From the NCBI GenBank assembly GCA_023485685.1, contig JAMCZK010000049.1, forward strand, positions 1,778 through 65,777: 64,000 nucleotides of DNA, in the 5' to 3' direction. The translations under genes were made by a program, and so were the position numbers. The stretch is from Chloroflexota bacterium (lineage in GTDB: Bacteria; Chloroflexota; Anaerolineae; Anaerolineales; UBA11579). Shown here one piece after another: positions 5,285 through 10,272 of the stretch; the stretch's first letter is position 1; each line of letters opens with the position of its first letter. Below the pieces are notes generated by a model. The model was given only the letters and a program-made list of their open reading frames with translations, searched no databases and was not told the origin of the DNA.

Positions 5285-5292
5285 ACTATTTG

Positions 5293-5674
5293 TGGAGATG
5301 GCGGGAATCGAACCCGCGTCCGAACGATTAGGTGCATGCACATCTACGAGCGTAGTCGGTTGTGCTTGTCGCCGCATGGCCCACAATCGACAAGGGGGTC
5401 CGCGCGGCCATCCGTTGTGTCTTTCACGTACTAAACGGAGTCGTACGCGGCACTCCGGCATTGTCTCGCCCGTTCTCTCCCAGCCGGAGGGAGGGAGAGG
5501 CGGACGCGGCTCACAGGGAGCCGGGCAACTCTTAGCTAGCCGGTTTTACGCGGCGAGCGGGAGAGCTGCGTAGTCAGTGCTTTTGGCACTTGATTGTTGC
5601 GCTGAGTTAACGAGGTCGGCGCCTCTCGGCTCGCAATGCATGACCAGCCTCATCCGTCGAAGCCAGTCATCCCC
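5293..5674 (-). ncRNA. ssrA: tmRNA; tag peptide (A)AKSTDYAALPLAA*
   Basis: 5' GGGGATG pairs with 3' CATCTCC-A including the G3.U alanine identity pair. T-arm GCGGGTTCGATTCCCGC is present. Tag ORF 5587..5546 ends LAA-stop. TATAAT lies just upstream; CCA is not encoded. Confidence 0.95.
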
Positions 5675-8695: not shown

Positions 8696-9629
8696 TCAGA
8701 CCGAGGTGGTGTTTAGCGAGGCCAGGCCCTTTCGCACCGCTTCCGTTTCCGATGTCATGAGTTCAACGACGATTCCATCCTGATCTTCAAGGGCAACTCC
8801 CCACAATCCGTCACGTTCAATAGTTTTTGTTTCTTTATCCTTCACGCGCTCGAAGACAGAGAGCCAACCAGCTTCGTCGGGAATGAGGAAAGCGTAGGAG
8901 TTGAGGCCGGTGAGATCTTTTTCGCGGCGCGGCGCGTTGAGGCTGTGCCAGGTATTGGCGCCCACATGGTGGTGGTAGCCGCCCGCGGCGAAGAAAAGCG
9001 CGGTCGGCATCGCCATCATTACGTCCAGACCCAAACGGTGACGATAGAAGGCCTCCGTGGTTGCCAGGTCGGTTACCTGAAGGTGGATGTGGCCGATATC
9101 CACGCCGGGATCCACCTTTCCAGCTTGGGCTGCAGCCTGGTCGGCTTCTTCCAGCAGCTTGCGCAAATCCAGCGGCAGGTTGCCGGTTTGAAGGACCTCG
9201 TGCAGCTTGGGCCACTCCTCCCGCGGTCGATCGCGGTAGAGCTCGATGCCGTTGCCTTCGGGGTCAGCCAAATAGATGGCTTCGCTGAACTGATGATCCG
9301 CGGCGCCTTGTAACGGATAGCGGGCCGCCACGATTCGGAGCAAGGTGCTGGCTAGCAGCACACGCCCAGAGAAGCGAAAGGCGGTGTGATAGAGGCCAGC
9401 ATGGTGTGAGGTTGAAGGCGCAGGGCGAGCCTCTTTGCTTTCGATTAAGGTCAACAAGGCAGGCGGCTGGCCTGTAGAAGATAACCTGGCGTAGGCAGCA
9501 GTCTTTTCGATCACCTGCATGCCCATCAGGTCACCGTAGAATGCCCACCAAGTCCGCCAGATTGAGCACGTTATATTCGACGTGGGCAATGTGGGTGGAG
9601 GGATGAATTTGGAAGGAGTTATTTGTCAT
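8696..9629 (-). CDS. VOC-family CatE-like ring-cleavage dioxygenase/glyoxalase, with +1 frameshift at about 9545
   Basis: GLYHTAF, DHQFSEAIYLADPEGNGIELYRDRP, IGHIHLQV, GGYHHHVGANTW. The natural N-terminus MTNNSFQIHPSTHIAHVEYNV (ATG 9629) joins in frame if one G is removed from gtGGGcattc. Confidence 0.8.
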
Positions 9630-9630
9630 A

Positions 9631-9686
9631 TTGACACATAGACGATTACCTATTATTATCTATTACATAGATAGCTATCTATGTAA
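9631..9686 (+). promoter_or_regulatory. Sigma70 promoter plus ArsR-type operators
   Basis: TTGACA (9631)-17 bp-TATTAT (9654); perfect palindrome TTACATAGATAGCTATCTATGTAA at 9663-9686; degenerate copy at 9636-9655. Confidence 0.75.
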
Positions 9687-9709
9687 GCCATCCAGCGAAA
9701 GGAGCCAAC

Positions 9710-9781
9710 ATGTTCGCAAAGGACGAAGAACTGGCCGTCATTGGTGACGGCGGTTGTTGCGGCGGCACCGGCTGCTGCTAA
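9710..9781 (+). CDS. Unannotated 23-aa Cys-rich micropeptide MFAKDEELAVIGDGGCCGGTGCC
   Basis: AAGGAG SD shortly before the ATG, own promoter and operator, two vicinal CC pairs; below the ORF-track cutoff. Confidence 0.75.
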   Translation: MFAKDEELAVIGDGGCCGGTGCC

Positions 9782-9856
9782 CAGTTGACAGTAGACTGTT
9801 GACAGTAAACAGCCAATGAATAACAGTTCGCTTCTCACTATTTAACTCGCCCGTTG

Positions 9857-10186
9857 TTATTTAACTTGGTCCAGGTGGACGAACTGCTCCGCGGCCGCAG
9901 ATTCCGGCGCGAAGGTGGTAATCAGCTGGCCGCAGCAAAAGGCAACTTTTTCCTGGTTTAGCAAGTAATAGGTATTCTTGCCTTTCTCTTCAGCCTTCAC
10001 CAGGCCAGCTTCCCGAAGGACGGCCAGATGGTGTGACACCGTGGGCTGGCTGACGTTTACCGCTGCGACGATCTGATTCACGTTGCGCCATTCACAACAG
10101 CAGCTTTCCATGATCTGCTGCCGCGTCGGGTCTGCCAAAACCTTGGCAAAAGCAACCGGATCCAGAGAGTTTGCTTTCATTTTCAT
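9857..10186 (-). CDS. ArsR/SmtB family metalloregulator with CCC and C-terminal CC motifs
   Basis: AKVLADPTRQQI, SQPTVSHHLAVLREAGLV; ESCCCEW and FCCGQL; TTGACA-17-TAAACT promoter and operator ATATTGACAGCTTTCGATAT adjoining the start. Confidence 0.9.
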   Translation of the reverse strand: MKMKANSLDPVAFAKVLADPTRQQIMESCCCEWRNVNQIVAAVNVSQPTVSHHLAVLREAGLVKAEEKGKNTYYLLNQEKVAFCCGQLITTFAPESAAAEQFVHLDQVK

Positions 10187-10272
10187 ATTGACAGCTTTCG
10201 ATATAAGTTTAATGCCGGGGAGGGAGCTTGTCAATGTCTTGAGACATATTTCACCATGTTATATTCCCAACG

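Follow-up and report, generated by a model that had tools for sequence, protein, structure and literature searches.

A conserved Cys-pair micropeptide gene beside arsR in Anaerolineales, a candidate sink for trivalent arsenic

The window, by which we mean the whole 64,000-nucleotide stretch of Anaerolineales DNA analyzed here, contains a short ORF that lies between a divergent VOC gene and a convergent arsR gene. The features of this locus are as follows.

8696..9629, minus strand: two-domain VOC (glyoxalase/extradiol dioxygenase-like) gene, frameshifted near 9544 here and open in relatives
9631..9659, plus strand: sigma-70-type promoter of the peptide gene, TTGACA at 9631-9636 and TATTAT at 9654-9659, 11/12
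9636..9655, no strand: putative operator 1, degenerate ATAGA-N6-TCTAT within the -35/-10 spacer, 16.7 bits
9652..9681, minus strand: candidate VOC promoter, TAGATA-18-AATAAT, weak (9/12), overlapping operators 1 and 2
9663..9686, no strand: putative operator 2, perfect 24-bp palindrome (12+12) 3′ of the -10 box, core ATAGA-N6-TCTAT, 28.9 bits
9698..9704, plus strand: Shine-Dalgarno (SD) sequence AAAGGAG, with the ATG 5 nt downstream
9710..9781, plus strand: micropeptide ORF, 23 aa, product MFAKDEELAVIGDGGCCGGTGCC-stop, a Cys-pair peptide
9782..9862, no strand: convergent intergenic space between the peptide gene and arsR, with a strong hairpin in most relatives and a weak one in the window letters
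9857..10186, minus strand: arsR, ArsR/SmtB-family repressor, 109 aa, Pfam HTH_5, CCC at residues 29-31 and CC at 84-85
10185..10204, no strand: putative operator 3, overlapping the arsR start codon, 17.0 bits
10206..10234, minus strand: arsR promoter, TTGACA-17-TAAACT, 10/12

The first-pass annotation of this DNA had described the ORF at 9710-9781, its SD sequence, a TTGACA-17-TATTAT promoter and a perfect palindrome, and each of them was found in place. The CCC and CC motifs that it had noticed in the ArsR are those at residues 29-31 and 84-85, and, as it had also reported, no pump, reductase or methyltransferase gene adjoins the peptide/arsR locus. Elsewhere in the window, a tmRNA gene (5290-5674, minus strand) scores 171 bits with Rfam and was missed by ARAGORN.

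The product, MFAKDEELAVIGDGGCCGGTGCC, has 4 Cys among 23 residues, a net charge of -3 and no hydrophobic signal-like stretch. When the window ArsR was searched in 61 genomes, a close orthologue was found in 20 of the 23 genomes of the genus; the three others are 74-88% complete. Together with G025, which belongs to another genus, these 20 genomes provide 21 loci with a common layout: VOC gene (minus), promoter, two operators, SD, peptide gene, hairpin (at most loci) and convergent arsR. Homologue conservation, one of the checks proposed by the annotation, held throughout the genus, with the ORF, SD, promoter and both operators present in 20/20 genomes that have a close ArsR orthologue. AGGAG precedes the ATG at 21/21 loci, its presence being part of the search rule itself. 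The ORF is found at all 21 loci, where its length ranges from 19 to 25 aa and differs by whole codons only, and all three kinds of stop codon are in use. Selenocysteine read-through of the stop was rejected, since TGA occurs at only 3/21 stops. The C-terminal CC is present in 21/21 peptides and the inner CC in 20/21; the last two Cys are invariant, and the last Cys codon is TGC at every locus (21/21). The N-terminal part drifts yet stays acidic, with a net charge of -2 to -5 at the syntenic loci listed.

Codon-level conservation, the other check, was assessed in 9 disjoint, hand-chosen close pairs, which comprise 18 of the 21 loci. These pairs differ by 36.7 synonymous changes over 126.5 sites and 27.3 non-synonymous changes over 476.5 sites (pN/pS 0.20), and the differences fall 14/13/37 by codon position. 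When all pairs are taken together, the whole ORF has a pN/pS of 0.45 and its last 11 columns one of 0.22. This comparison indicates that the micropeptide ORF is a real, conserved gene under purifying selection on its amino acids. We rejected a C-terminal remnant of a longer ars gene as its present state because the ORF has its own promoter and SD and is under selection; an evolutionary origin from the tail of such a gene is possible. The micropeptide matched nothing in Pfam (E<=0.1), NCBIfam or PDB (chain, E<=10), and 0/10 family members were present in an exact look-up in a 15-billion-protein collection. Its size is below gene-calling limits, which is why arsenic-gene surveys and databases miss it. 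A plasmid blastn search with the peptide gene returned nothing beyond 5 short chance matches, and the RNA evidence consists of one run (6% of words), with a contig over part of a relative's arsR only.

Four promoter-like sites were found, compared with 1.3 expected. The letters TTGACA, ACATAGA and TCTAT form invariant columns across 12/12 aligned loci, which places the 9663-9686 palindrome above chance. Perfect 24-bp palindromes are not rare in the window's 1.71-Mb genome (13 zero-gap palindromes with arms of at least 12), and therefore the case for an operator rests on comparison. We trained a weight matrix with 94 operator-like sites from relatives and applied it to this genome, where it ranked the site at 9665 first, that at 10185 third and that at 9636 fourth genome-wide; the second-ranked site is at C15, with no recognizable ars gene 3′ of it. 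The palindrome had been said to resemble a site beside the arsR start, and operators 2 and 3 are indeed identical at 14/20 bases; we infer that ArsR regulates its own gene via operator 3. The proposal that the palindrome is an ArsR operator gains comparative support from its conservation and from the arsM context described below. Across five near-complete genomes, exact copies of the operator core lie at the peptide locus and 3 other sites, compared with 4 control sites, and additional regulon sites in these genomes were rejected on this count.

A TTGAC-led spacing is also found 5′ of arsR in relatives. The arsR (10186-10206) and VOC (9629-9631) starts have no SD and are immediately preceded by an operator half-site or a -35 box; this arrangement suggests very short or leaderless mRNAs. 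The hairpin z in 9782-9862 is 0.4 in the window, compared with a range of -1.8 to -8.5 among 16 further loci in synteny. Run X1 differs from the window at 9827-9840 by 8 letters and 2 gaps, and, judged by eye, its letters would pair with 9848-9861 into the terminator-like hairpin of relatives. Since the X1 letters would restore this hairpin, those of the window at 9827-9840 possibly result from misassembly.

Compared with its relatives, the VOC gene carries one additional base near 9544, which splits it into 32-aa and 297-aa frames; this frameshift had escaped the first-pass annotation. The base is shared by the contig of run X1, which is possibly the source of the assembly and not independent, and is absent from X2 and X3. 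The first-pass annotation had suggested that the VOC gene is co-regulated with the peptide. This is plausible, since a 45%-identical VOC gene belongs to an arsR-arsM-methyltransferase-VOC run on one strand in G030, with flanking genes as in the genus. The further step of taking the second operator as proof does not hold, because paired operators also occur without a VOC gene (L116, L078, L112, L124). With the ArsI/CadI model NF041414, the VOC protein scores 32 bits against a cut-off of 116, which places it outside that family. The ArsI C-As lyase has a vicinal Cys pair; no CC pair occurs in the VOC sequences checked (0/15). A split ArsI made of VOC protein and peptide was rejected for want of obligate co-occurrence: VOC occurs without the peptide in G030, and the peptide without VOC in G028 and in the other families read.

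Among 14 aligned ArsR orthologues, C30, C84 and C85 are invariant and C31 is nearly so. Five Cys, arranged in two groups, are present in the window ArsR, and the clade alignment places the conserved CC(C) immediately N-terminal to helix 3 and a CCG in helix 5. The available text of PMC13236881 describes Cys-only ligand sets for EcArsR, AfArsR, CgArsR and SpArsR. The As(III) sites defined in the available text of PMC13236881 and PMC11672702 are CVC in helix 3 (EcArsR), CCx5C in helix 5 (AfArsR) and an N-terminal CC plus a helix-3 Cys (CgArsR); SpArsR has an MAs(III)-selective two-Cys site, a C-terminal CC without a third Cys. Compared with these descriptions, the window ArsR resembles AfArsR and SpArsR in the CC pair of its C-terminal helix. 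However, its alignment contains none of the CVC, CCx5C and N-terminal CC patterns that distinguish EcArsR, AfArsR and CgArsR, and the match to SpArsR is not exact: no Cys follows CC 84-85, yet there are extra Cys at 29-31. The AfArsR match to the window ArsR stops short of helix 5, and the BigR model scores 46 against a cut-off of 155. The window ArsR may represent a further type of arsenic-sensing site. As it has no published As(III) pattern, its inducer has to be deduced from the genes that its clade heads. In G028 (83% complete), the peptide and operators are kept with no arsR beside them, and the best ArsR match is weak; at this locus (L116 5794-5933) a three-Cys peptide with both operators has a NUDIX-like gene replacing arsR, and no VOC gene.

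The same operator and ArsR clade recur at arsM loci of relatives. In 401 genomes of Anaerolineales, the pattern CATAGA-N6-TCTAT followed by an SD was found in 39, compared with 5 control matches. The gene 3′ of the 21 such sites outside the genus is arsM at 8, a multi-Cys peptide at 8, a two-Cys variant of the peptide at 2, and an ArsO-like flavoprotein, arsR and nothing clear at 1 each; the ArsO-like gene faces an aquaporin gene and an ArsR-ArsC fusion, with ArsO and ArsC scores below the cut-offs. From 21 non-genus genomes with a close ArsR match, 17 loci were read. Here arsM stands beside arsR at 15/17, a Cys peptide is present at 5/17 (one with only two Cys), and arsM occurs without the peptide at 12/17, which makes the peptide dispensable at such loci. 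All eight ArsM proteins tested exceed the NF008823 cut-off, and the rest were identified by a local profile. The order arsR-operator-peptide-(hairpin, often a further operator)-arsM is found at L069, L073, L074, L075, L115, L138, L153, L170, L177 and L209, and arsR-arsM-peptide at L078, L129 and L139; arsR and the peptide occur without arsM at L070, L071, L118, L156, L165, L191 and L193. At L072, L074, L075 and L115, arsM has its own operator 3′ of the peptide gene. By comparison, then, the peptide gene would be part of an ars regulon, with the operator and repressor clade of arsM/arsC genes and a co-oriented place in ars operons. The annotation had proposed a metal(loid) ligand in general. 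Because this ArsR clade adjoins arsM at so many loci outside the genus and the peptide lies within arsR-arsM operons, we narrow that claim to arsenic-type metalloids.

Two further small proteins were observed at these loci. A protein of 109-118 aa recurs beside this arsR clade (L111 4108-4461, L191 3450-3776, L209 2283-2612); it has one Cys near its N-terminus and no Pfam match (L111 and L191 tested), and is a candidate unnamed ars gene. In one peptide sub-type (L117 5960-6130, L118 5440-5645, L119 3295-3460, L125 4330-4480) the start is rich in Arg and the core reads AHC(C/S)EG; 3 of its 4 members have only two Cys. It shares a downstream CCTG(A/G)GCACG..AAA element and hairpin, possibly a repeat or regulatory RNA, with no Rfam match. 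At 8 loci, Rfam likewise gave no match.

The window's own genus lacks arsM (0/23 genomes, single-contig ones included), whereas 14/24 other genomes of the family have it. The genus has probably lost arsM and inverted the promoter-peptide cassette, and its peptide would be what remains of an arsR-arsM operon. The annotation's suggestion that the micropeptide is the main output of its ArsR is, within this genus, supported by the comparison. Arsenic-type defence in the genus extends beyond the peptide: acr3 is present in 6/23 genomes, and LMWP/ArsC-like, ArsP-like and MIP genes in 5/5 genomes tested, none of which has ArsB (0/5). The operator pattern is missing at 15/16 other arsenic-type loci read, and the single locus that bears it had been picked for its operator match. 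The window's genome (G000, 76% complete) has an ArsC-like gene following a phosphate ABC transporter and gave no acr3, MIP, ArsP or ArsD match. A position directly 3′ of the transporter ATPase gene is genus-wide for this ArsC-like gene (L257, L259, L260, L261; G000 C11 20365-21578).

A scan of GTDB with the pattern SD..CCGG..GCC-stop extended the family. Its 120 listed matches are counts and not prevalence, and include kin that are not independent and some rows that duplicate genus genomes. They contain at least 59 SD-led open ORFs of 13-27 aa. Among the matches listed, arsR lies within 300 bp of 48/59 SD-led CC..CC ORFs, compared with 0/61 other matches; the ArsR profile used was partly trained on GTDB hits, and the figure among untrained loci is 16/19. 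In Actinomycetota (Gaiellales/Thermoleophilia, Acidimicrobiia and Microbacteriaceae among the matches listed), 20/26 listed peptides are divergent from arsR, the partner ArsRs are mostly of the N-terminal-CC/CVC, CgArsR-like type, and an ATYGA-N6-TCRAT-like repeat lies between arsR and the peptide gene. Of the 11 listed peptides without a near arsR, arsM precedes 1, an arsC-like gene precedes 2 (L161, L239), 2 overlap the end of a MerR-family gene, 1 is at a contig edge and 5 are doubtful. The two that overlap a Cys-rich-tailed MerR-family gene (L174 2624-3078 and L192 2625-3061, both Limnocylindria) point to a second sensor family with the same output, and because of them the ligand need not be arsenic everywhere. 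At L148 (2637-4831), an ArsR is divergent from the peptide gene, a DUF47 gene and a PiT phosphate transporter gene on one strand, a possible link to arsenate.

Homologous peptides have 4-7 Cys in 13-27 aa, apart from the three-Cys case in G028. Their leader is not conserved, and the shortest is one residue (MCCDPDCCGGGCC). Full-length proteins with a CC-G..-CC tail also appear among the matches listed, namely the ArsDs L208 and L221 (PF06953) and the ArsM-like L206 and L173. L136, L155, L157, L185, L210, L212, L216 and L238 belong to a different Clostridia small-protein family that matches the pattern, with Gly/Cys-rich ends flanking a hydrophobic core and no arsR nearby. The phylum-wide pattern found 3/401 compared with 10 control matches, which is background; its gap limit is too short for the window's own gene, and the result therefore speaks only for a scarcity of short-leader forms in the sample. 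A first order-wide CC pattern had hit 111/401 genomes, mostly through out-of-frame Leu-Leu signal peptides, and only in-frame Cys peptides were followed. The peptide gene is found within or next to ars genes of two phyla, Chloroflexota and Actinomycetota, and its distribution is probably patchy.

Overall, after comparing these loci, we consider it probable that the peptide is a cytoplasmic sink, derepressed through ArsR, whose two Cys pairs would hold As(III), methylarsenite or Sb(III). In this putative mechanism, apo-ArsR would bind operators 1 and 2, over the peptide promoter and probably the VOC promoter too, and operator 3 at its own start. Binding of As(III), methylarsenite or Sb(III) to the ArsR cysteines would release the repressor, and the near-consensus promoter and strong SD would then yield large amounts of peptide. 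With three thiolates the Gly-spaced CC..CC tail could hold one As(III); with two thiolates per ligand it could take up to two methylarsenites. For metal ions, the four Cys present in the window peptide permit a small complex at most. As capture lowered the free metalloid, ArsR would rebind. The CC..CC tail in which ArsD and some ArsM-like proteins end would here exist as a separate peptide. A role as a stoichiometric sink agrees best with the observations, because the peptide persists without a partner enzyme and has neither an export signal nor a conserved leader, because Cys number and linker length vary freely, and because promoter and SD are near-consensus. Arsenite binds strongly to vicinal thiols (available text of PMC6205960), and methylarsenite is made by ArsM and persists without oxygen (available text of PMC11653729). 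Since a CC pair also suits a two-coordinate species, methylarsenite is a possible ligand; As(III) and Sb(III) would fit as well.

Other roles have to be weighed against such a sink. It is unlikely that the peptide is a general soft-metal mini-metallothionein for Cu(I), Cd, Hg or Zn, under an ArsR that responds mainly to such metals. Up to 7 Cys are found in homologues of 24-27 aa, a number sufficient for a metal-thiolate cluster, two peptides follow MerR-family genes, and SmtB-SmtA is a precedent (for SmtA, available text of PMC7558416), but the window's ArsR clade and operator go together with arsM and other ars genes, and by eye no heavy-metal ATPase or CDF gene was recognized beside the loci read. 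A metallochaperone or dithiol relay could deliver As(III) to ArsM in the way that ArsD supplies ArsA, re-reduce ArsM, or supply the Cys pair with which the Cys-poor VOC protein would act as an ArsI-like C-As lyase. The position of the peptide directly before or after arsM at many loci agrees with this role, as do the lack of a CC pair in 15/15 VOC proteins and the VOC gene within the ars cluster of G030. We nevertheless regard it as unlikely, for the peptide remains under selection where arsM is absent (0/23) and is found at Actinomycetota loci with arsR only, arsM usually lacks the peptide (12/17), VOC and peptide occur apart (G030; G028 and the other families read), and the ArsI/CadI score is far below its cut-off (32 vs 116 bits).

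The five Cys of the ArsR, in two groups and with no published As(III) pattern, would also suit a redox-sensing repressor of a thiol-redox or persulfide buffer. The co-located VOC gene, CatE-like and of a family linked to thiol stress, would then encode a thiol/quinone-stress enzyme. This is very unlikely given that the regulon elsewhere consists of arsM, arsC, ArsO-like and ArsP-like genes and that the BigR score is 46 against 155. We give still less credence to a cis-acting leader peptide or small RNA that attenuates arsM by sensing Cys or arsenite and is no free chelator. The hairpin 3′ of the ORF at most arsR-peptide-arsM loci and the uniform last Cys codon (TGC, 21/21) speak for it, but selection acts on the amino acids and a separate operator often lies between the peptide gene and arsM; in the genus and at several Gaiellales loci a convergent gene comes next, which leaves no target for attenuation. 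The annotation had also offered a RiPP-like precursor, here with its modifying enzyme encoded elsewhere, as an alternative. It is the least probable of these readings and found no support: the acidic N-terminal and Cys-rich C-terminal parts recall a leader and core, but no modifying enzyme, protease or exporter was recognized beside the peptide loci read, the leader lacks conservation and is down to one residue in the shortest case (MCCDPDCCGGGCC), no MNIO/DUF692 protein was found in G000 (76% complete), and the one SPASM protein per genome is encoded elsewhere.

Beyond the sink itself, we tentatively suggest that ars operons include an overlooked, dedicated arsenic-sequestration gene. It would encode a CC-G(n)-CC peptide of 13-27 residues, below the described bacterial metallothioneins in size, in Chloroflexota and Actinomycetota. 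It could replace ArsM as the chief product under an ArsR whose CC(C)+CC sensing site is undescribed, and may in anoxic communities be tuned to methylarsenite. The available text of a 2025 paper (PMC12093948) states that no intracellular arsenic sequestration gene was found within an ars operon, and the peptide is a direct candidate for one. If it binds As(III) or methylarsenite, the mechanisms encoded by ars genes, so far efflux, redox and methylation, would gain sequestration as a further one. That would have consequences for arsenic retention and for methylation yield among Chloroflexota of sediment and groundwater, and the peptide would be a minimal natural arsenic-binding tag. In the available text of a 2018 review (PMC6205960), the peptide is not among the ars genes, and the words "peptide" and "metallothionein" occur 0 times. 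We found no description of such an arsenic-operon peptide in the open-access literature, subscription papers and bioRxiv supplements being outside this scope. Intracellular holding of metalloid has been reported for AntC, an Sb(III) chaperone of Comamonas that serves an efflux ATPase (PMC12641948), and, outside the ars operon, for QueF/QueE of Lysinibacillus (PMC12093948); neither is described as a micropeptide in the available text.

SmtB is the ArsR-family repressor of smtA. The available text of PMC7558416 describes SmtA as a bacterial metallothionein and MymT of M. tuberculosis as a 4.9-kDa product of a formerly unannotated ORF. As in SmtB-SmtA of Synechococcus PCC 7942 and in MymT, so described, the product is small and Cys-rich with a metal-sensing repressor alongside, and MymT was likewise once unannotated. 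The window peptide is small, Cys-rich (4 Cys/23 residues) and, judging from coding selection, gene-encoded, as metallothioneins are. However, at 13-27 aa the family is far below the 4.9 kDa of MymT, has no His or Pfam match, lacks the zinc-finger fold and family match of SmtA/BmtA, and lies in an arsM/arsC context, whereas that of SmtA and MymT is Zn or Cu. R773 ArsD has C-terminal vicinal pairs at Cys112-113 and Cys119-120 (available text of PMC4562236), and the peptide likewise has two vicinal Cys pairs at its extreme C-terminus; the listed ArsDs L208 and L221 end in CCGGxGCC or CCGGNTGCC. Unlike ArsD, the peptide has no PF06953 domain and no Cys12/13/18 chaperone site, and has a separate gene, provided with a promoter, operators and an SD of its own; no arsA was seen beside it at the peptide loci read. 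The arsR-arsM operons (NF008823) have the ArsR clade and operator in common with the window locus and include the peptide as a member in relatives, whereas the window's genus has probably lost arsM.
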